Shown here one piece after another: positions 21,456 through 30,040 of a stretch of DNA of 64,000 bases (positions are counted from its first letter, which is position 1; each line of letters begins with the position of its first letter). The position numbers and the translations under genes were made by a program. The notes under the pieces are model-generated. The model was not told where the DNA came from. It did not search any database and saw only the letters and a program-made list of their open reading frames with translations. Origin of the DNA: a virus; the UHGV virus genome UHGV-1483955, one strand, 5' to 3'.

Positions 21456-22334
21456 GTGAGTATGCATCAAGTCGTCAGCTTTTCAGGTGGACGAACATCG
21501 GCTTATCTCGTTCATCTGATGGAAGCACAGCGAAAAGCTGGCGCTAGCGTCCATTTCATTTTTATGGATACCGGCTGTGAACATCCTCTGACGTATCGCT
21601 TTATTCGTGAGGTTGTGAAGTTCTGGAACGTACCGCTAACGGTGTTGCAGGTCGATATAAATCCAGAACTTGGGCAGCCAAATGGTTATACGGAATGGGA
21701 ACCAAAGGATATTCAGACGCGAATGCCGGTGCTTAAACCGTTTATGGACATGGTTAAAAAGTACGGTACGCCATACATCGGCGGCGCGTTCTGTACCGAC
21801 AGGCTAAAACTCACCCCTTTCACGAAATATTGCGATGACCATTTTGGGCGAGGGAATTACATCACATGGCTCGGTATTCGTGCGGACGAACCCCGTAGGC
21901 TGAAACCGAAACCGGGCGTCCGGTATCTTGCCGAACTGTCAGATTTTGATAAGTCGGATGTTATCCGGTGGTGGCGAAAACAACCTTTTGATTTGCAAAT
22001 CCCGGAGCACCTCGGGAACTGTGTTTTTTGCATCAAAAAGTCAACGCAAAAGCTGGGGCTTGCATGTAAAGACGAACCAGGTCTGATGCGGGTTTTTAAT
22101 GAACTGGTTACAGGCAAACACGTCAGGGATGGTCATCGCAGAACAGGTAAAGACGTTATGTACCGTGGCCACCTGACGCTTGACGGGATTGCCAGAATGT
22201 ATGCCGACAGTGACTACAGAAATTTGTATCAGGCGATGGTGCTGGCCAAGCGGTTTGATACTGGTTCGTGTTCCGAATCATGTGAAATCTGGGGTGACCA
22301 ATTGGAGTTGAAATTCGAAGAGGTAGTGGAATGA
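21456..22334 (+). CDS. PAPS reductase-like PP-loop ATP pyrophosphatase family protein
   Basis: VVSFSGGRTSAYL PP-loop (SGGxxS) near N-terminus. Confidence 0.7.
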   Translation: MSMHQVVSFSGGRTSAYLVHLMEAQRKAGASVHFIFMDTGCEHPLTYRFIREVVKFWNVPLTVLQVDINPELGQPNGYTEWEPKDIQTRMPVLKPFMDMVKKYGTPYIGGAFCTDRLKLTPFTKYCDDHFGRGNYITWLGIRADEPRRLKPKPGVRYLAELSDFDKSDVIRWWRKQPFDLQIPEHLGNCVFCIKKSTQKLGLACKDEPGLMRVFNELVTGKHVRDGHRRTGKDVMYRGHLTLDGIARMYADSDYRNLYQAMVLAKRFDTGSCSESCEIWGDQLELKFEEVVE

Positions 22335-22534
22335 CAATCGTAAAAACCCATACCGGTACCGTGATCACCAAAGATGGCCCGAAGGTAAAAAAACTGCACC
22401 AAACAGAGCGGATGTGGGTCGTTGGCAAAAACGAGTTTTACCACAAAGAAACTGGACGCCGCCATTTTGCAGAAAATACACGCCGCCGACTGCTGTTAGA
22501 CACCATCAAGCCTATCGAGGTGAAGCATGTTTAA
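22331..22534 (+). CDS. small hypothetical protein (67 aa)
   Basis: Start overlaps upstream stop. Confidence 0.4.
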   Translation: MTIVKTHTGTVITKDGPKVKKLHQTERMWVVGKNEFYHKETGRRHFAENTRRRLLLDTIKPIEVKHV

Positions 22535-22766
22535 ACAGAACGAAAAAGCTATCGCTCAAATTGCTGATTATATCCCGCGTGCGTGCCGGGGTATGCAGTT
22601 GCAGGAAGCCAAAGCGCGCCTGGAGAAAAAAATTGCGCTCTATATTGATGACGGCTGTGATTCCGCCGTTCTTAACGCGGCGTTCGCACCAGCTCTTAAC
22701 TGTCACACTCGGGAGTCTTTTTTTTCGTGCATCGCAGCGCAACTCCGCCAAGGAGGCAACCAGTGA
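22527..22766 (+). CDS. small protein with Ead/Ea22-like conserved C-terminus (..AAQLRQGGNQ)
   Basis: C-terminal decapeptide shared with 23395-24270 and 24554-25288; stop overlaps next GTG start. Confidence 0.45.
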   Translation: MFKQNEKAIAQIADYIPRACRGMQLQEAKARLEKKIALYIDDGCDSAVLNAAFAPALNCHTRESFFSCIAAQLRQGGNQ

Positions 22767-23407
22767 GTAACCGTTTTTACATGATGTGCTTGCGTGAAAC
22801 TGTGGGTAATAACGCCTCATTCCATTGCCATAACGGCAATGGTTACAGTTCTGATATCGATCGCGCTCATATTTACACGCTGGAAGAAGCCCAAAAAGCC
22901 TGGAATTGTGGGCGAGATATCGATCAGCCTGTTTGTGCCGATAGTGTGGATGCAATGGCTGTGTGGCACGTTGATTGCCAGTACATCCCTACAGAAAGCC
23001 TGATTGAGTCAGATTGCACTGAGTATGTGGCCTACAAAAAAGGTAGCTGGAACGGCAACGATGTTTACTGGCTTCAACACGGTGGATTGCCAACAGATGA
23101 CTTCAGTAAAGCGACCATCTTTAGCGTCGTCAACAAAAACGAACCAGGAATAGTTTGGTTGCCATTTTCCATTGCTGATGCAGCAAAGCGCCGGACGTTC
23201 AATATCAATAACTTTAACCGCAGAACAATGGTTCAGGGCGCAGGGTTGGTCATGCCTGACTGGTTGAAAGAGCAGAACAGAAGAAAGAAGTCGCGAAGCG
23301 GGAAGGTGCGTTGGAATTGTCCGCATTGCGGAAAAATAACCTGGCAGTACAGCCCATATGATTTTGAAGGCTGTAGTGATTACAACTGTGAAGGATGGCG
23401 AGAATGA
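22763..23407 (+). CDS. hypothetical protein with C-terminal Cys-rich zinc-ribbon-like motif
   Basis: GTG start after AGGAGG SD; CPHCG...C..C near C-terminus. Confidence 0.5.
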   Translation: MSNRFYMMCLRETVGNNASFHCHNGNGYSSDIDRAHIYTLEEAQKAWNCGRDIDQPVCADSVDAMAVWHVDCQYIPTESLIESDCTEYVAYKKGSWNGNDVYWLQHGGLPTDDFSKATIFSVVNKNEPGIVWLPFSIADAAKRRTFNINNFNRRTMVQGAGLVMPDWLKEQNRRKKSRSGKVRWNCPHCGKITWQYSPYDFEGCSDYNCEGWRE

Positions 23408-24270
23408 CAATTGACTATCAGGTACTGCGTGAGGCGGCAGAAAAGGCAACACCAGACGAATGGGTCGCATTTATTTCGACGGATACTGGTACTTATGCGG
23501 TGCACACGCCCGGTGATGAACGATGTGAAGACGTTATCAAATGGACCGGCTTTGATGGACAGAAAAATGCAGAGAACAACGCTCGTTATGTTGCCGCGTT
23601 CAACCCAAAGGTTGCACTGGAGCTGCTTGGTGAAATTAAGCGCCTGGAGGACACAAATATTGATGCTATGTGTCGAATTGCAGAGCTTGAGACTAATCTC
23701 GCGGCGCTGGCAGCGGAGAATGCGGCGCTGAAGGCCGGGGCTATGTATTTCTCATATGGCTCTGAATTTAGTTTCGAGTGTCACAAAACTGCTGAGGAGG
23801 CTATCGCTGCTGCTGAGGCTGCAATTGACGACTATAGAGGCGATGCTTGCGATGGATGGAGCGAAGAGGTCGAAAGCATTTGCTGGGGGGTAATTATTCA
23901 GCAGGCAACCAAGGTCGGTGAACGCAAGAAGAGGAAATGCGACAGAGTATCACCATGGATTGAAAGAGTTTGTGATTATGAGCTTCGACCTAATGTCGAA
24001 ATCCCAGCCACCGATGCTTTCCTGTCTGAAATTCGTGCGGAAGCACGCAACGAGGGGATTAACTATACCGCCAGCCGTCTTGCTGCTGCGTTCAATCACG
24101 GATTTATCAATAAGTCTTTGCGTGAAGTTTTCGACGTTACACGCATGATTTTGTCAGCGAAAGAAGAGTTGGCTAATGAAGCGCATCCGATTGATGGCCT
24201 GTCTGGTGAATATGCGGAGAAATCCCTTGAAGAATGGGCGGAACAAATTCGCAAAGGAAGCAGCCAGTGA
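23395..24270 (+). CDS. Ead/Ea22-like family protein (paralog A)
   Basis: N-terminal TIDYQVLREAAEKATPDEW, central coiled coil, PATDAFL motif, C-terminal EQIRKGSSQ. Confidence 0.55.
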   Translation: MARMTIDYQVLREAAEKATPDEWVAFISTDTGTYAVHTPGDERCEDVIKWTGFDGQKNAENNARYVAAFNPKVALELLGEIKRLEDTNIDAMCRIAELETNLAALAAENAALKAGAMYFSYGSEFSFECHKTAEEAIAAAEAAIDDYRGDACDGWSEEVESICWGVIIQQATKVGERKKRKCDRVSPWIERVCDYELRPNVEIPATDAFLSEIRAEARNEGINYTASRLAAAFNHGFINKSLREVFDVTRMILSAKEELANEAHPIDGLSGEYAEKSLEEWAEQIRKGSSQ

Positions 24271-24557
24271 ATATCGACACGACAATAACGATCGATACGC
24301 TCCTAAATACCGGTCTGGCACTTCTCGGTTGGCTTTACATCATGTCCCGCACATGGCGATGGCTGGGTTCCATTTTCCTAAAACAGTGGAAAAAACGGCG
24401 CAAACAGGAACTACGCCAGAAGGCATTAGAAGCGTTCTATGACGCATTTGAGCTTAGCCGCATTGAACCAGGTACAACAGCCAGGATAGCGACAAAAGGC
24501 GACCTGATGATAGTGATGTTCCGACAGGAGAGAGCAGAGAAAGGGGAATCAGCATGA
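24267..24557 (+). CDS. small putative membrane protein
   Basis: GTG start overlapping previous stop (GTGA); hydrophobic segment LLNTGLALLGWLYIM. Confidence 0.4.
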   Translation: MNIDTTITIDTLLNTGLALLGWLYIMSRTWRWLGSIFLKQWKKRRKQELRQKALEAFYDAFELSRIEPGTTARIATKGDLMIVMFRQERAEKGESA

Positions 24558-25288
24558 AATTTTCCAAATTTTCTGAGTTGGTGAATCGTATTTTGTCCAA
24601 CAACCACAGCCATCGTCGCGATATGGATGTAACAATCGTTGTTCATTCGCCTGGCAGCATTGGTTCAACACCTTCAGTTGAGGTTCAGTCAATTCACGCT
24701 GGTTTTGATTGGGATTCCGGGAAAGTGCTTATTTTCCCATCACAGCCACTGACCACGCTAACACCAGAACAGATTACTGATATCACTGATAGTGTGCGCA
24801 AAGGTCAGTCTTGGCACGCATATCAGGAATACAAGAAGCATCAAGAGCAGTTGGAAAAATTGTCGATTGAACTGGATGCCGCAAAACAGCGCATTGCAGA
24901 GCTGGAGGGTAATCGCACGGCGCTGGCAGTGGAGAATGAGCTGGCTCGTAAGGCAGTTCAGGCATTCTGCGATGTTGTTGGCGACAACACCGAGGTTATC
25001 GCTGAGGTGGTTGGGCGAGATGGCGTTCTGGTTATTTTGGAGGCCATGAAGGCAACAGGAAATATGCCAGCCACCGATGCTTTCCTGGCTGAAGTGCGGG
25101 CGCAGGGCGTGGATGCTGCTATAGAAGCTGCAAAAAATCTGGTGGCCCAAGAATATGAGTATAAGGATTTCAAAGCGGCGCAGAGTGATTGCTGTATGCA
25201 CCCTGGTTCAGACCTGGTAGGGAAGGTTGAAATGACTGAGTGGTTAGTTGACTTTGCTGCCCAGCTTCGCAAAGGAGGCAACCAGTGA
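24554..25288 (+). CDS. Ead/Ea22-like family protein (paralog B)
   Basis: Shares coiled coil, MPATDAFLAEVRA and C-terminal AAQLRKGGNQ with paralog A. Confidence 0.55.
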   Translation: MKFSKFSELVNRILSNNHSHRRDMDVTIVVHSPGSIGSTPSVEVQSIHAGFDWDSGKVLIFPSQPLTTLTPEQITDITDSVRKGQSWHAYQEYKKHQEQLEKLSIELDAAKQRIAELEGNRTALAVENELARKAVQAFCDVVGDNTEVIAEVVGRDGVLVILEAMKATGNMPATDAFLAEVRAQGVDAAIEAAKNLVAQEYEYKDFKAAQSDCCMHPGSDLVGKVEMTEWLVDFAAQLRKGGNQ

Positions 25289-25875
25289 GCAAGATTGATT
25301 ATCAAAAGCTTCGTGAAATCGCTGAAAAAACAAAAATTGCTGGTGAAGCACCTGTAATGCCCTTCGATCAGCGAATTAATGCGCTTAACGATTTTATGAA
25401 GCACTTTTCGCCAGATATCGCGCTGGCACTGCTGGATGAACTGGAAAGAAACCAGCAATACATCAAACGCCGCGACCAGGAGAACGAGGAAATTGCTCTT
25501 ACGGTTGGGAAGCTGCTAATCGAAAACGGCCGGCTTGTTGCCGATACGCTACGCCACTTAGCTGATAACGAAATCGACTCTGATTATTTTGCTATCACCT
25601 CAACGAATGAGAACGGTACTGAAATTGATCATGAGATGGCTATTACCGATTACGCACTGCAAGCTGCCGGAACTGTAGACGAATTGGTTGCGGCGCTGGA
25701 ATCCGCAGAGAAGCGCATAGCAGAACTGGAAGCACGGGAAATATCGCTCCCAGAACGTAGCAGCATGCTTCATCGAACAGATTTTCACGAGGATTACCAA
25801 ACGGTAATGGCATACAAAGTTTCTGAGGTCATCGCTGCAATCCGCGCCGCTGGCATTCGCATCAAAGGAGAGTGA
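25285..25875 (+). CDS. Ead/Ea22-like N-terminal domain protein (paralog C)
   Basis: GTG start; MSKIDYQKLREIAEK...FSPDIALALLDELE parallels paralog A N-terminus. Confidence 0.5.
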   Translation: MSKIDYQKLREIAEKTKIAGEAPVMPFDQRINALNDFMKHFSPDIALALLDELERNQQYIKRRDQENEEIALTVGKLLIENGRLVADTLRHLADNEIDSDYFAITSTNENGTEIDHEMAITDYALQAAGTVDELVAALESAEKRIAELEAREISLPERSSMLHRTDFHEDYQTVMAYKVSEVIAAIRAAGIRIKGE

Positions 25876-25876
25876 T

Positions 25877-26839
25877 ATGAGCGCTATAACCAAAGAACGT
25901 ATCAAATTATTCATTAAAAATCCGCTTGATAACGGACTTACTCGTGGCGAACAAATGGAACTGGCACGAATTGCGCTGGCATCGCTGGAAGCAGAACCGG
26001 TGGCATGGACTGATGAAGAGGAACTGCGCGATGTCAGGAAGTATGGTTTCGGTGAGATATTTCAGTGTCCGCCAGATAAATATGCGGACCCGCGTCGTGT
26101 AATCTCGCTGTATCGCGAGCTGCCAGCACCGGTAGTGCCAGATGATTGGCAACTCGTACCTAAGAAAATAACACTGGAAATGGAATGTGCTCTATCAAAA
26201 GCTGATAGCTATGAAATTGGTTGGCTATGGGCATTGGCAGCCGCACCTAAATACGAAGTACAGAACGCTAAACGCGTGCAAAACGCGCTTAACGCCTGCC
26301 GCGCCGCCATGCTTCAGTCCGGAAACTTTCGGGAAAACAAGAATTCGTCAACCAATAATTTTCGGGAAATCGCGGAAACGTCAACCAACTATCCGGCAAT
26401 TCCTAGTGAGGTGTTGTCCGCAATCCTGAAGGTTGCCAGGATTCGTGCCGATTTCGATGATTTTGACGGTGACAGGCGAGGTATCGGTGATTGTCTGGAT
26501 GAGGCTGAGCAAGAGCTTATCGTTACCATTAACAAATATGCCAGTCAGTTGGCAGCAGAACCGATAGCGACTAATGACGTTCGAGAGCAGCAGACAGCCA
26601 TTCCGCAAGTTCCGGTAACTCCGGATGGTTGGATAAGCTGTAGTGAGCGAATGCCGAATACCAAAACGGCCGTTCTTGTTGCCGTGGAGTTTGACAGGAA
26701 AGGTGACTGGCGAATGAAATGGGCTACTTACATCCCGGGGCATCCTGACGCTAATGATGGGTGGATAATTCCTGGTGCGTCGTGGAAACCGTCACACTGG
26801 ATGCCGCTACCAGAACCGCCGCAGGAGGTGAATCAATGA
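25877..26839 (+). CDS. DUF551-like C-terminal domain protein
   Basis: C-terminal GWISCSERMP...SHWMPLPEPP matches DUF551 signature. Confidence 0.6.
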   Translation: MSAITKERIKLFIKNPLDNGLTRGEQMELARIALASLEAEPVAWTDEEELRDVRKYGFGEIFQCPPDKYADPRRVISLYRELPAPVVPDDWQLVPKKITLEMECALSKADSYEIGWLWALAAAPKYEVQNAKRVQNALNACRAAMLQSGNFRENKNSSTNNFREIAETSTNYPAIPSEVLSAILKVARIRADFDDFDGDRRGIGDCLDEAEQELIVTINKYASQLAAEPIATNDVREQQTAIPQVPVTPDGWISCSERMPNTKTAVLVAVEFDRKGDWRMKWATYIPGHPDANDGWIIPGASWKPSHWMPLPEPPQEVNQ

Positions 26840-26919
26840 GCTGGCCTGAAGCATTCGCAACGGTAGGAATTGTGATGGCGGCAGCACTGGGTTTGTATTC
26901 AATTTGTCGCTGGTGGTAA
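26836..26919 (+). CDS. small hydrophobic peptide (27 aa, MSWPEAFATVGIVMAAALGLYSICRWW)
   Basis: AGGAGGTG SD 5 nt upstream; ATG overlaps upstream stop (ATGA). Confidence 0.35.
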   Translation: MSWPEAFATVGIVMAAALGLYSICRWW

Positions 26920-26921
26920 CG

Positions 26922-27155
26922 ATGGGGAAATTAACTTTTGTAGTCGAATTTGAGGATGGTAAAGAGCCACCTGTTAGCGCCAATCTTGATGTTGCTGGTG
27001 GCAGGCTTGTTTCGGTTCTATTTGGTGACTACCGAGATGACTTCTTCCAACCAGAAGAAGTTGATGTAGTGCGAGAGGCATTAAACGAGTTAAGTGTTGA
27101 TAACGATGATGCTCATGCGGAAATCATCCAAAAAATGGAACTGCTAACTCACTAA
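26922..27155 (+). CDS. small acidic hypothetical protein
   Basis: ATG 2 nt after upstream stop. Confidence 0.4.
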   Translation: MGKLTFVVEFEDGKEPPVSANLDVAGGRLVSVLFGDYRDDFFQPEEVDVVREALNELSVDNDDAHAEIIQKMELLTH

Positions 27156-27203
27156 ATTATCAATTATGGTGCTATCACCTACGACACCGAGAGAGAATTT
27201 ATA

Positions 27204-27326
27204 ATGTCAAAAGTAAATGTTTTGATTTTTTCAGCAATTGTTGGCTTTGGTTTTACTGCCGGAGTGCAGATTTATATTACGTGGGAAAAAATCATCAACT
27301 ACGCATGGAGTTGTTTTATTAAGTGA
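27204..27326 (+). CDS. small membrane peptide (40 aa)
   Basis: AT-rich; hydrophobic core LIFSAIVGFGFTAGVQIYI. Confidence 0.3.
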   Translation: MSKVNVLIFSAIVGFGFTAGVQIYITWEKIINYAWSCFIK

Positions 27327-27333
27327 GGTAAGT

Positions 27334-27627
27334 ATGTGGAGAGGTAATAGTCATGGCAAAAGCCAGATGATACTTACCGAATATCAGTTTGACCATAAAA
27401 CCAATAAATCACGTTCAGTATATTTGCTTCGGCACAATAGCCGCGTAAGGAATACCGTGCTGGAGCAAAATCTGACTGTTGAAATGGATAATTACGGGGG
27501 CTTCAAGCCAACAATTTCGCTTGATGATTTTCCTCGTGGTTTAAGCGAAAGAGAAGCAATGCTGAAATTAGCAGAATGGCTACAAAGATTAAGCATTGCT
27601 ATTGAAGATAACTGGTCTGAACCTTAA
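27334..27627 (+). CDS. hypothetical protein (97 aa), AT-rich
   Basis: GAGG SD 5 nt upstream of ATG. Confidence 0.45.
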   Translation: MWRGNSHGKSQMILTEYQFDHKTNKSRSVYLLRHNSRVRNTVLEQNLTVEMDNYGGFKPTISLDDFPRGLSEREAMLKLAEWLQRLSIAIEDNWSEP

Positions 27628-27633
27628 ATTTAT

Positions 27634-28008
27634 ATGATGACACTAAAACATTTTCTTGACCGCCCATTATGGGCGGCAGCCGCAGGCTATGACTTTAATT
27701 ATATGGATTGCATGTCTTATACCGCCAATGCATACGACCATTCCTTCAGTCTGCTGTTTAATTCTTTAAGAATATTGCCGCAAACAGAAGTTGGAGAGCT
27801 TCATTTATGGCTATTGGGCTTTATCGCGGCTGTCGTTGGTATTGCTGTATGGCCTTTTATTTTCTGGCTGGTGGCTGTTGTAGTGTGGGTTAAGTGCAAG
27901 ACATACCGGAAAAAGTATTTCTTAGGTGATGGAATGACTGATATTGCCAAAATGAACATTGAAGAATGGACTAAGGAATGTGAAAAGAAATGGCGCAAAA
28001 AGAAATGA
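27634..28008 (+). CDS. membrane protein (124 aa) with basic C-terminal tail
   Basis: TM segment LWLLGFIAAVVGIAVWPFIFWLVAVVVWV. Confidence 0.5.
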   Translation: MMTLKHFLDRPLWAAAAGYDFNYMDCMSYTANAYDHSFSLLFNSLRILPQTEVGELHLWLLGFIAAVVGIAVWPFIFWLVAVVVWVKCKTYRKKYFLGDGMTDIAKMNIEEWTKECEKKWRKKK

Positions 28009-28640
28009 CCAGAATCACTGAAGAGCGCATATCAGAGATTATTTCCCGTATCGAAATGTATGGTCACGGTGCTGGATATACGGCAGATGAAGTATTGGAA
28101 ATAGCCCAGCAGATGCTGGCCTTGAGACAAAAAGAGCAACATGAAAGTAATACGTGTAGATTGAATTTTGAGCATTGGCTGGAACAGCAACGCGGGAAAA
28201 TCGATGTGGACTGTGGTTGTGTGTCCACTGAAACATTCATGCACTGGCTGCGGGTAGCTTACGAGGCTGGCAACTATCCGGATATTCCGGATAGTTCGGT
28301 GCCAGCACCAGGAAAGGGCGTCACCGGTGAACGTATCCGAATTAAGCCGCATGTTTATCGCGAACTGGTTAACCGTCTCCACGATACAGCGATCAAGTGT
28401 GCTGGCACCCAGCAATTACGAGAAAGAATTAGCCGTGTTTTGGGCGACGTTATTACACCAGATCATCATAAACAAGCCGAGAAAAGTGGCCTGGAAAGGT
28501 GTCGCCTTGAGGCGGCATTAAACATTAAGCCGGGGCATACGCTTGGCATTATTGATGCACTATTGGTTCATAAGATGGCCAGGGCTTTATTGCCGCTGGT
28601 GGCTGAAAAGCATGAGGTGGACCATGCCAACGAAAGCTGA
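27990..28640 (+). CDS. hypothetical protein (216 aa)
   Basis: ORF overlapping neighbours on both sides. Confidence 0.5.
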   Translation: MAQKEMTRITEERISEIISRIEMYGHGAGYTADEVLEIAQQMLALRQKEQHESNTCRLNFEHWLEQQRGKIDVDCGCVSTETFMHWLRVAYEAGNYPDIPDSSVPAPGKGVTGERIRIKPHVYRELVNRLHDTAIKCAGTQQLRERISRVLGDVITPDHHKQAEKSGLERCRLEAALNIKPGHTLGIIDALLVHKMARALLPLVAEKHEVDHANES

Positions 28641-28908
28641 ATTACAGGTGCGCGTAGATGAGCTTGAAAAAGAGAACGCGAGCCTCAAAAAAATGCTGTC
28701 GCGGGCGGAAAGGGAATTATCAGGCAAATTATTGCCAGAAGAACTGCCACCAGCAGATATACCTGATCGAGTGTCCTGGTGGATGAAGTATTTCCGTGCA
28801 CCGTGGGAGGCGTTTTGGTGCTACGACCATCGCAGATGGTGTGATGAACTTGATAGCAATTTTCCCTACTTTGCGGAAGGGAACACCTGCCCTCAATGCA
28901 GGGGATAG
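28624..28908 (+). CDS. coiled-coil protein with C-terminal CxxC motif
   Basis: GAGGTGG SD; ELQVRVDELEKENASLKKML coiled coil; C-terminal TCPQCRG. Confidence 0.45.
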   Translation: MPTKAELQVRVDELEKENASLKKMLSRAERELSGKLLPEELPPADIPDRVSWWMKYFRAPWEAFWCYDHRRWCDELDSNFPYFAEGNTCPQCRG

Positions 28909-29243
28909 CATTTGACGAAATCGATCACCCTATCCTGAACTTCAGAAAGAAGGTCTTTTTCACGCGCCAGGACGTCAGGATATTGACGTTCTGGCCTTAC
29001 CAGATGCCGGAGCTTCCCATTAAGCAGAATGGCCTCAGAAAACACTTTTACGCTGTGCTTTATCCCCTCTGTTTCACTTTTCAGCGTCAAAATAAAGCGC
29101 AATTGCTTATTAGCCTGATTCGGATTCAATACACGAATTTGCAGTTCGTCTATGCTGTTTCGCAATGGGATTGATGCCACCACACTGGTGCAGTCTCTGA
29201 TTGTCTGAATTGAACGGCTAACATTGAGAACGTTATTGTGCAT
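28893..29243 (-). CDS. possible hypothetical protein (116 aa); orientation ambiguous
   Basis: Competes with plus-strand ORF 28896-29174; no motif support. Confidence 0.25.
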   Translation of the reverse strand: MHNNVLNVSRSIQTIRDCTSVVASIPLRNSIDELQIRVLNPNQANKQLRFILTLKSETEGIKHSVKVFSEAILLNGKLRHLVRPERQYPDVLAREKDLLSEVQDRVIDFVKCYPLH

Positions 29244-29275
29244 GTGCCTGATCCACTAACTCCTGGAGGTTTCTT

Positions 29276-29527
29276 GTGTCAGATCGAAATATAGCAGCTA
29301 AAAGCCAGGAAGAGCGAGACAAGGTGAACGTAGACCTTGCCGCCAGCGGCGTTGCTTACAAAGAACGGCTGAATATACCTGTGATTGCAGAGCAGGTGGC
29401 CCGTGAGCAACCGGAAAACCTGCGCGCCTATTTCATGGAACGGCTACGGCACTACCGGCAGTTAAGCCTCCAGTTGCCAAAAGGGAGCGATCCGGTGTAT
29501 CAGAACGAGGATGCACCAAAAAAATAA
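29276..29527 (+). CDS. hot: homolog of DNA polymerase III theta subunit
   Basis: [43 protein letters not shown] resembles HolE; GGAGG SD. Confidence 0.8.
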
Positions 29528-29612
29528 CGGCAAGATGGGGGAGAAATGTGATTAGCCCCCAGCGTGGCGCGCCTACAAACCCCGCTTTCACAAACTATGC
29601 CTTTTCAATGTA

Positions 29613-29650: not shown

Positions 29651-30040
29651 ATGGGCTTCCCTTCTCCTGCGGCGGATTATGTTGAAAGCCGAATTTCTCT
29701 TGATCAGCAGATAATTAGACATCCTTCAGCGACCTACTTCATGCGGGCAGCTGATAGCCATCACCGTGAGGGAATATTGCAGGGTGCTTTGCTGGTGGTT
29801 GATTCCTCGCTTACTCCGGTTGATGGTTCTCTGCTTGTGTGCGCTATGGAGGGTGAATATCGCATAAAGAGATACAGGAAGTATCCGCGCCAGCACCTGG
29901 AGGACTTAAGCACCGGGAAGAAAGAGGCGTTACCAGTAGATGACGATGGATACACGGGCAGTAATGCTGTTTTTGGTGTGATCACTCATGTCATCAATGA
30001 TGCCCGAAGTGGGGAATTTGATGATTGTCCGGTTATTTAA
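29651..30040 (+). CDS. humD: UmuD'-like SOS mutagenesis protein
   Basis: UmuD/LexA C-terminal domain-like sequence; LexA box upstream. Confidence 0.8.
   Translation: MGFPSPAADYVESRISLDQQIIRHPSATYFMRAADSHHREGILQGALLVVDSSLTPVDGSLLVCAMEGEYRIKRYRKYPRQHLEDLSTGKKEALPVDDDGYTGSNAVFGVITHVINDARSGEFDDCPVI

Follow-up and report, generated by a model that had tools for sequence, protein, structure and literature searches.

What makes neighbouring and largely unrelated genes end in the same few residues and hand over to one another through the same few bases? This question is raised by an array of eight genes, here called A to H, in the UHGV virus genome UHGV-1483955, of which a stretch of 64,000 nucleotides (nt), referred to as the window, was analyzed; the window is a P1-like IncY phage-plasmid, and all features described below lie on its plus strand. 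The initial annotation described positions 22527–26839 as a chain of Ead/Ea22-like paralogs connected by overlapping restarts and closed by a DUF551-like gene. Three open reading frames (ORFs), genes B (22527–22766, 79 residues), D (23404 or 23395–24270, 288 residues) and F (24554–25288, 244 residues), do end in the pattern Q(L/I)R(K/Q)G(G/S)(N/S)Q that it had listed, as AAQLRQGGNQ, AEQIRKGSSQ and AAQLRKGGNQ, respectively. The 17-mer that it had placed after each of these ORFs is also present in three copies, and encodes the last five residues of the decapeptide and the stop codon (K-G-G-N-Q-stop in the upstream frame) rather than following the genes. Comparison of the sequences led us to a reading that we consider likely, namely that the array is a coupled early operon of the exo-xis type whose genes are reassorted by homologous recombination at short homologies.

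The 17-mer AAGGAGGCAACCAGTGA occurs exactly at 22750–22766 and 25272–25288, and a third copy with two mismatches, AAGGAAGCAGCCAGTGA, lies at 24254–24270. Only 0.13 matches at up to three mismatches were expected, and three were reached in 0 of 100 shuffles. Comparison of the window with itself for repeats extended the copies to a junction island of 37 nt. In the first island, J1 (22734–22770), the end of gene B holds the Shine-Dalgarno (SD) sequence AAGGAGG and the spacer CAACCA, with the GTG of gene C over the TGA; J2 (24238–24274) is a degenerate copy, AAAGGAAGCAGCCAGTGA, with the GTG start of gene E, and is the commonest junction before DUF4752 homologs; J3 (25256–25292) contains the exact 17-mer, with the GTG of gene G over the TGA of gene F. 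The junction sequence between gene pairs, GGAGGCNNCCAGTGA, is thus laid out as GGAGG, a 6-nt spacer and GTG, with TGA overlapping. As had been claimed, the GTG is the in-frame start of the next gene at all three junctions (C at 22763, E at 24267 and G at 25285) and the overlapping TGA is the stop of the preceding one, in agreement with the starts assigned by the Prokaryotic Genome Annotation Pipeline (PGAP) in the nearest plasmid, which is 99.7% identical.

The whole of 21456–26919 is packed in this way. A PAPS-reductase-like gene, genes A to H and a 27-codon ORF follow one another in this order with stop/start overlaps of 4 or 8 nt or a 1-nt gap, and an SD-like motif stands 3–9 nt before all nine successive starts, inside the preceding gene. 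By its layout, the junction is predicted to be a strong translation-initiation region of the downstream gene. The stop and start codons overlap and the SD lies within the upstream coding sequence, as expected of translational coupling, and our best reading is that the genes may be coupled through these sites. No RNA structure or SD-sequestering hairpin was found at the junctions with ViennaRNA (z-scores +0.73, +0.23, −0.67 and +1.19), so that independent initiation is equally possible. In its layout the array resembles translationally coupled genes with four-base ATGA or GTGA overlaps, the SD being 3–9 nt upstream throughout, and differs from the usual overlapping genes in that one initiation region is reused verbatim before many unrelated genes. 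Fusion of the products by frameshifting or readthrough at GTGA was rejected, as no slippery motif is present and readthrough of the TGA would miss the downstream frame. The junction has no resemblance to a Chi site.

The constraint acting on the junction was examined in loci retrieved independently of the 17-mer, through homologs of gene C, which is highly conserved (95–100% identity in the best 80 of 195 confirmed viral-contig matches). In these 80 loci, each of the 77 sites identified by the motif reads GGAGGC(N)(N)CCA(G/A)TGA or a one-base GGAGG variant of it, and gene C is preceded by the initiation region GGAGGCNNCCA(G/A)TG whatever the upstream DNA, which falls into at least 12 unrelated contexts. 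The spacer bases AA, AG, AT and GA in this sample give N, S, I and D, respectively, as the penultimate residue, and the Gly codons of the tail in the pooled sample are almost always GGA GGC despite their fourfold degeneracy. The same nucleotides are also found with the upstream gene in another frame, or with only 11–15 open codons. Because the Gly codons are almost fixed, the penultimate residue varies and out-of-frame copies exist, the KGGNQ half of the decapeptide appears to be the imprint of a constraint at the nucleotide level rather than a protein motif. Synonymous variation is seen in the four codons that precede the core, (A/E/D)(Q/E)(L/I)R (Ala as GCC, GCG, GCT or GCA; Leu as CTT, CTC or CTA; Arg as CGC, CGT or CGA), with four synonymous differences between genes B and F over the five AAQLR codons, so that the (A/E)(Q/E)(L/I)R half looks like the end of a real, conserved C-terminal protein module.

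These observations bear on a different explanation, in which the decapeptide is a functional protein motif, such as a degradation tag, a partner-binding tail or an oligomerization cap, and the DNA repeat is secondary. That the (A/E)(Q/E)(L/I)R residues are kept through synonymous changes, and are placed at the end of a helix predicted with low confidence, would agree with such a function, as would the ending of all Ea22 proteins in K/R-G-E, which has been called a motif of unknown significance (PMC7093339). A protein motif would not, however, account for Gly codons that are nearly invariant next to a penultimate residue that varies radically (N/S/I/D/K), or for the occurrence of the same nucleotides in another frame or after open frames of very few codons. 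Moreover, unrelated proteins share the tail (..NAMWRKGGNQ and ..RKPSKGGNQ), and the codons of both K-G-E and K-G-G spell AAGGAG. We consider it improbable that the decapeptide is primarily a protein motif.

The junction is present in many relatives, the exact 17-mer occurring in more than 120 IMG/VR viral contigs among the matches listed. At 110 unique sites, which had been found by means of the 17-mer, the flanking 240 nt in either direction were clustered, leaving out the 40 nt before and the 60 nt after the junction; the resulting 19 clusters of upstream DNA and 30 of downstream DNA are joined in 66 combinations. Downstream lie genes of the Ead type and members of six or more unrelated families. 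Outside about −18 to +60 around the junction, information content is close to zero; within these limits, positions +17 to +60 encode MS(K/E)I(D/N)YQALREAAE, with which Ead-type genes begin. Over less than 10 nt, spacer and downstream variants were found in all four combinations, which indicates exchange inside the core. Clark et al. 2001 reportedly described, for phage HK620, seven short conserved boundary sequences between the modules of lambdoid phages. The junction is likewise short, lies at a gene boundary between unrelated flanks, occurs in many phages and has breakpoints on it. Unlike the lambdoid module boundaries, it works at the scale of single genes and parts of genes and doubles as a translation-initiation region; as a boundary sequence, it is common to lambdoid phages and P1-like plasmids. 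A model in which recombination takes place at short conserved boundaries has been described, and is attributed to Clark et al. 2001 in passages of PMC3233612 and PMC2327257. A literature search, in which overlap with the boundary sequences of Clark et al. 2001 was left unchecked, yielded no paper containing the junction sequence, and within the same scope we could not find its very wide combinatorial reuse described.

Self-comparison of the array recovered three kinds of short DNA island, which are the only DNA shared among genes D, F and G. Within genes, a coiled-coil island (RIAELE..ALA.EN; 49 nt, 86% identity) is common to D (23674–23722) and F (24890–24938), and a PATDAFL island (39 nt, 87% identity) lies at 24001–24039 in D and at 25064–25102 in F. 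Breakpoints, taken as the ends of blocks of at least 200–250 nt shared between the window and other loci, cluster at the gene junctions and at these islands, namely at 23700–23736 and 23993–24033 in D and at 24890–24938 and 25060–25119 in F, with the shared block ending at 24938 in 33 loci. A further cluster, at 25411–25516, falls on the conserved Ea22 core block of gene G (25410–25516, LLDELERNQQYIKRRDQENEEIALTVGKL), a DNA island common to many phages, for which 68 high-scoring segment pairs start at 25410–25429 and 73 end at 25510–25519 in IMG/VR loci. BLAST matches to Shiga toxin (Stx) phages and plasmids often start at query 451–453, which corresponds to 22750–22752 and the first base of the junction in J1, and end at 24938, 25107, 25304 or 25516.

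The association of breakpoints with islands is strong. In the sample ascertained by the 17-mer, 30 of 53 distinct end positions lie no more than 15 nt from islands that cover 11% of the region. An independent sample of 150 unique loci, anchored on gene C or E, was compared with seven islands defined beforehand from the repeats within the window and covering 10.6% of the region. The seven islands contain 325 of the 503 block ends and 67 of the 111 distinct positions, and only 45 of the 503 ends are outside any junction or island. Exchange below the level of the gene is also visible in homologs of gene F with 83–88% overall identity, which differ essentially by one cassette of about 40 residues; it sits exactly between the coiled-coil and PATDAFL islands and was seen in three versions.

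Profile searches found the families Ead_Ea22, DUF4752 and DUF551 in the array. Pfam Ead_Ea22 (PF13935, gathering threshold 27 bits) is passed by gene D (3.7e-19, 70.1 bits, residues 2–126) and gene G (7.9e-17, 62.6 bits). Genes B and F have no PF13935 match at E ≤ 0.01, and some 83%-identical relatives of F with another cassette have a precomputed PF13935 hit. The proposed chain of Ead/Ea22-like paralogs thus holds for two of the eight genes, with F sharing short islands with D. The DYQxLRExAEK N-terminus attributed to the paralogs is common to D and G and to no other genes, and PATDAFL likewise to D and F alone. Protein alignments extend over only 90 residues between D and F (28% identity) and 78 residues between D and G (33% identity). 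Genes D, F and G are therefore mosaic relatives interleaved with unrelated genes, and "chain of paralogs" is too strong a term, because the three share only short alignable stretches and islands. Local tandem duplication of an Ead/Ea22-like gene, with later divergence in place, would explain the presence of two Pfam Ead_Ea22 genes and a related third one in 2.5 kb, as well as the three copies of the junction and the two pairs of internal repeats. Duplication in place fits poorly with genes that are barely alignable outside the islands and with the unrelated families of the intervening genes C and E. Moreover, the near or complete lack of synonymous differences in the islands points to recent sharing of DNA and not to old paralogy, and each gene has 95–99% identical copies in other phages with different neighbours. 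We regard such a duplication as very improbable.

A short constant sequence between variable cassettes also bears a superficial likeness to a dedicated site-specific cassette system of the integron or shufflon kind, in which the junction would be the target of a recombinase. The junctions have no inverted repeat and no significant structure (z-scores as above), are coding and overlap start and stop codons, and breakpoints are also found at several unrelated intragenic islands. No recombinase-like protein was detected among those scanned at 20724–28640, three short ORFs at 26836–28008 being outside the scan. An integron-like array was accordingly rejected, with no attC-type structure and no recombinase among the scanned proteins, and we give a dedicated cassette system of any such kind next to no chance.

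A second type of junction is found at the end of gene G (25285–25875, 196 residues), which ends in GIRIKGE and is, of the genes in the array, the one most closely related to lambda Ea22. The two proteins are 55% identical over the first 80 residues, including the block ERNQQYIKRRDQENE.IALTVGKL, and gene G has the lambda-type Ea22 architecture of a short N-terminal segment, a central coiled coil, a separate C-terminal domain and a K/R-G-E end (PMC7093339, PMC10834534), its coiled coil (AEKRIAELEARE) being predicted from sequence alone. The last 27 nt of gene G (25849–25875, GCTGGCATTCGCATCAAAGGAGAGTGA, AGIRIKGE-stop) are identical to lambda ea22 29847–29873 (L124), although the C-terminal domains of the two proteins are unrelated. 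At the junction with gene H (25849–25879), this sequence is followed by T ATG; in the resulting ATC AAA GGA GAG TGA T ATG, the SD AAGGAG of gene H lies within the K-G-E codons of gene G. Every Ea22 protein is reported to end in K/R-G-E ("+GE"), with unknown significance (PMC7093339). Because the codons spell the SD AAGGAG, a simple reading is that the K/R-G-E ending may represent the SD of the downstream gene and be part of a conserved 3′ boundary. We could not find this explanation of the "+GE" ending described; it offers a simple answer to the published puzzle and leaves the kind of element unchanged.

The relationship to known Ea22 proteins extends to their modular construction, which has been described as a conserved N-terminal part and coiled coil to which exchangeable C-terminal domains are joined, DUF551 in one variant (PMC10834534); the Ea22 proteins of lambda and of Stx phages are tetrameric and pro-lysogenic (PMC7093339, PMC10834534). 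Gene D has the same N-terminal signature and coiled coil as lambda Ea22 and P22 Ead (PF13935, IPR025153) but ends in KGSSQ, not in K/R-G-E, and the C-terminal domains of the array proteins are unrelated to the solved C-terminal domain of lambda Ea22. Unlike lambda ea22, the array belongs to a P1-like plasmid prophage and is placed under a C1 operator, not in the pL operon. By analogy, the Ead/Ea22-like proteins are probably coiled-coil oligomers with interchangeable C-terminal domains that act on the host early after derepression.

In the standard alternative for phage mosaicism (PMC3233612), cassettes are joined at random by illegitimate recombination, and selection then retains those joints that leave both genes intact and translatable. 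Several findings favour this alternative or weigh against recombination at the homologous patches. Where both flanks are unrelated, the exactly identical run across the junction is short: its median is 22 nt, and 23, 27 and 34 nt are reached by 41%, 26% and 10% of pairs, respectively. Such lengths just reach or fall short of the minimum reported for efficient pairing, the minimal segment being 23–27 bp for Red-beta versus 31–34 bp for RecA, with Rad52-like phage recombinases acting on short, diverged homologies (PMC3945230). A deletion joint of P1 in the same region has essentially no homology. Homologs of gene E use at least five different junctions, several of them unrelated and all keeping GTGA and an SD, and the 17-mer is one common linker among several. 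The enrichment of breakpoints is an association and not a demonstration of targeted crossover, because block ends must coincide with the edges of any conserved island, and illegitimate exchange with selection would give a similar breakpoint picture. The loci also share ancestry, so that their breakpoints are not independent, the counts are inflated and binomial P values are overstated, and the flank clustering drew on sites found by the 17-mer itself. Finally, the 3′ end of lambda ea22 (AAAGGAGAGTGA) is not followed by a start codon, which leaves it no current coupling function and makes it a retained boundary only.

On the other side, an SD needs neither the spacer CAACCA nor the exact 15–17-mer, yet these are identical across 30 downstream and 19 upstream families, and convergence on the same spacer is implausible. 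Intragenic islands with no role as an SD also carry breakpoints, and flanking variants less than 10 nt apart are found in all four combinations. We consider illegitimate recombination with selection an unlikely explanation for the array as a whole, with a small but real chance of being correct, and retain homologous recombination at short patches as the preferred reading.

Under this preferred reading, the block would consist of early accessory genes of the lambdoid exo-xis/ea type placed in a variable region of a P1-like element. It would form one early operon, repressed by C1 as suggested by P1, in which expression is linked through overlapping stop/start sites. The junction, the first ~15 codons of Ead-type genes and the intragenic islands (coiled-coil, PATDAFL and Ea22 core) would act as patches of homology, at which recombination between co-resident phages or prophages would swap whole genes and cassettes smaller than a gene. 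Such patch-based exchange could generate combinatorial diversity in lambdoid phages and P1-like plasmids alike.

The location of the array is consistent with this scheme. The best plasmid match covers 83% of the query at 99.7% identity; partial matches extend to hundreds of E. coli plasmids of 90–100 kb, and coverage of at least 80% was reached by only 1 of 645 matching plasmids. Local blastn against reference P1 aligned P1 70924–85182 with window 7160–21418 (99.1% identity) and P1 85182–85528 with window 28259–28605. The region is thus not collinear with canonical P1: blastn and inspection of the joint left a segment of 6.84 kb without counterpart (21419–28258), which holds the whole array. 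The array lies in the variable region from pmgT to hot, between pap/Op88 and hot, on a backbone collinear with P1. The stretch pmgT-pmgU-pmgV-upfMNO-hot-lxr-humD is listed among the eight regions of P1-like plasmids that are highly variable, and plasmid JL22 has a gene cluster in place of pmgT (PMC9603915). P7 upf86.8-upf89.5 occupies the same place as the array, with homologs of gene C (Upf87.6) and an Ead-like gene (Upf88.3); the gene content of the array differs from that of P1, P7 and most plasmids, and the junctions were not analyzed in the published survey (PMC9603915).

Upstream of the array, the C1 repressor operator Op88/OpmgT is found at 20529–20545 as an exact match to the P1 operator ATTGCTCTAATAAATCT. 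From the operator on, 197 of 200 nt are identical to P1, including the sites annotated there as PpmgT promoters, and Op88 probably controls the operon to which the array belongs. The first gene of this operon is an intact pmgT-like gene of 242 residues (20724–21452), which matches residues 1–231 of P1 PmgT and then diverges at the deletion joint. Promoter-like sites across the array are fewer than in shuffles, and a terminator scan gave no convincing plus-strand terminator within it. From this fit we infer a single operon, transcribed once C1 repression is lifted, with C1 control taken from the annotation of P1. The GC content of the array (0.48–0.50) is the same as that of its flanks and gives no signal of foreign origin.

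Several further observations were made on the surroundings. P1 PmgT (309 residues) consists of the first 231 residues of the 242-residue ORF at 20724–21452 followed by an out-of-frame read into a 216-residue ORF at 27990–28640, and P1 PmgU is the C-terminal half of the latter ORF. The deletion joint, CCCTGGGT|TACGAGG (window 21418/28259; P1 NC_005856 85182), has essentially no homology, so that the loss of 6.84 kb in P1 looks illegitimate. Sequence comparison thus suggests that pmgT and pmgU of reference P1 arose through a 6.8-kb deletion, a point of relevance to the annotation of P1. Within the segment missing from P1, GC content falls to 0.40 at 27000–28000, where small ORFs encode hydrophobic segments (27204–27326 and 27634–28008). 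Other differences from reference P1 are found at 6071–7160, 28605–29282 and 29530–29598: the window has other sequences in place of the tciA-C region, pmgV and upfM-O, lacks lxr and has a hot gene of only 85% identity.

The block of lambdoid type is headed by the PAPS-reductase-like gene (21456–22334, 292 residues; Pfam PAPS_reduct, 2.8e-09). Its product resembles SspD (PADLOC, 1.8e-13) and weakly DndC and BrxP, and might act in DNA modification or defence. Gene A (22331–22534, 67 residues; phrog_1226, 2.7e-42) overlaps the preceding stop by ATGA. Gene B matches phrog_1344 (2.6e-52), and gene C (22763–23407, 214 residues; phrog_2457, 6.9e-119), the homolog of P7 Upf87.6, has a Cys-rich C-terminus (CPHCG..CSDYNCEGW). 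Gene D comprises the Ead/Ea22-like N-terminus, the coiled coil and the PATDAFL module, and gene E (24267–24557, 96 residues) has a hydrophobic N-terminal segment and matches DUF4752 (PF15944; 1.7e-42, 143.8 bits) above the gathering threshold of 27 bits. In gene F, an N-terminal domain that is not of the Ead type is followed by the coiled coil, the swappable cassette and the PATDAFL module; it matches phrog_6026 and, in common with gene D, phrog_368. No Pfam family was assigned to genes A, B, C and F, which belong to PHROGs of unknown function, and none of genes A–H has a match in NCBIfam or PADLOC. Genes D, F, G and H each match many PHROGs over different segments, a sign of mosaicism.

Gene H (25877–26839, 320 residues) is itself mosaic, and the closing DUF551-like gene of the first description was confirmed: residues 251–316 match DUF551 (PF04448; 3.1e-21, 76.4 bits; gathering threshold 22 bits), and the first 250 residues are other mosaic segments by their PHROG matches. 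The HWMPLPEPP motif reported as its end is present, six residues before the actual C-terminus (..HWMPLPEPPQEVNQ). A 33-nt tandem duplication inside gene H (26324–26388) encodes NFRENKNSSTN/NFREIAETSTN. The 27-codon hydrophobic ORF (MSWPEAFATVGIVMAAALGLYSICRWW) at 26836–26919 overlaps the stop of gene H by ATGA, has AGGAGGT 6 nt upstream and is without annotation in the nearest plasmid. Structure gave little guidance on function. An AlphaFold2 model of gene F, built on an alignment of 10 sequences, had a mean predicted local distance difference test score of 50 and a predicted template modeling score of 0.23 and was judged unusable; its outline, of low weight, is a predicted N-terminal beta region, a long helix at 87–142 and a helical C-terminus. 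Gene G had no sequence match in the PDB, and the match of gene D, a lectin construct, was dismissed as spurious coiled-coil similarity.

The lambdoid connection is seen most clearly in Shigella phage Ss-VASD (Sepvirinae), in which a PAPS reductase, homologs of A and B, an Ead/Ea22-like gene, a hypothetical gene and a DUF551 gene lie between recT-exo-ssb and xis-int, that is, in the exo-xis region. Segments of the array are 95–97% identical to Stx-converting phages; among 544 matching phage records, most in the organism breakdown are Escherichia and Stx-converting phages. P1, P7, SJ46 and other P1-like phages also share parts of the array at 95–97% identity. These comparisons support an accessory array shared with lambdoid phages, with transfer possible in either direction. 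The proposal of a recombination-shuffled array possibly imported from lambdoid phages was thus supported as regards the shuffling and by the same gene order in a Sepvirinae phage.

All components of the array are of known kinds: the variable region, the mosaic Ea22 genes, the overlapping-gene signals and the model of recombination at boundaries. The array is thus a clear and well-supported example of known phage mosaicism and not a new system. In a more speculative reading, to which we give only a slim chance, the junction and the intragenic islands would be linkers maintained for combinatorial exchange, and the Ead/Ea22-like family would be a modular adapter, with variable domains swapped on and off a shared scaffold of N-terminus and coiled coil in an arms race against factors of the host or of rival phages; D, F and G would then possibly co-assemble through the shared RIAELE..ALA.EN segment. 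If true, this would mean recombination-based diversification of early phage proteins across lambdoid phages and P1-like plasmids.

The comparisons document recent sharing, at 95–97% identity, of cassettes of the exo-xis type between lambdoid phages and P1-like phage-plasmids. They also bear on a long-standing question, whether mosaicism arises by homologous recombination at boundary sequences or by illegitimate recombination and selection. For this question the junction provides a compact test case, with a core of 15–17 nt placed between dozens of unrelated gene pairs and breakpoints lying on it.

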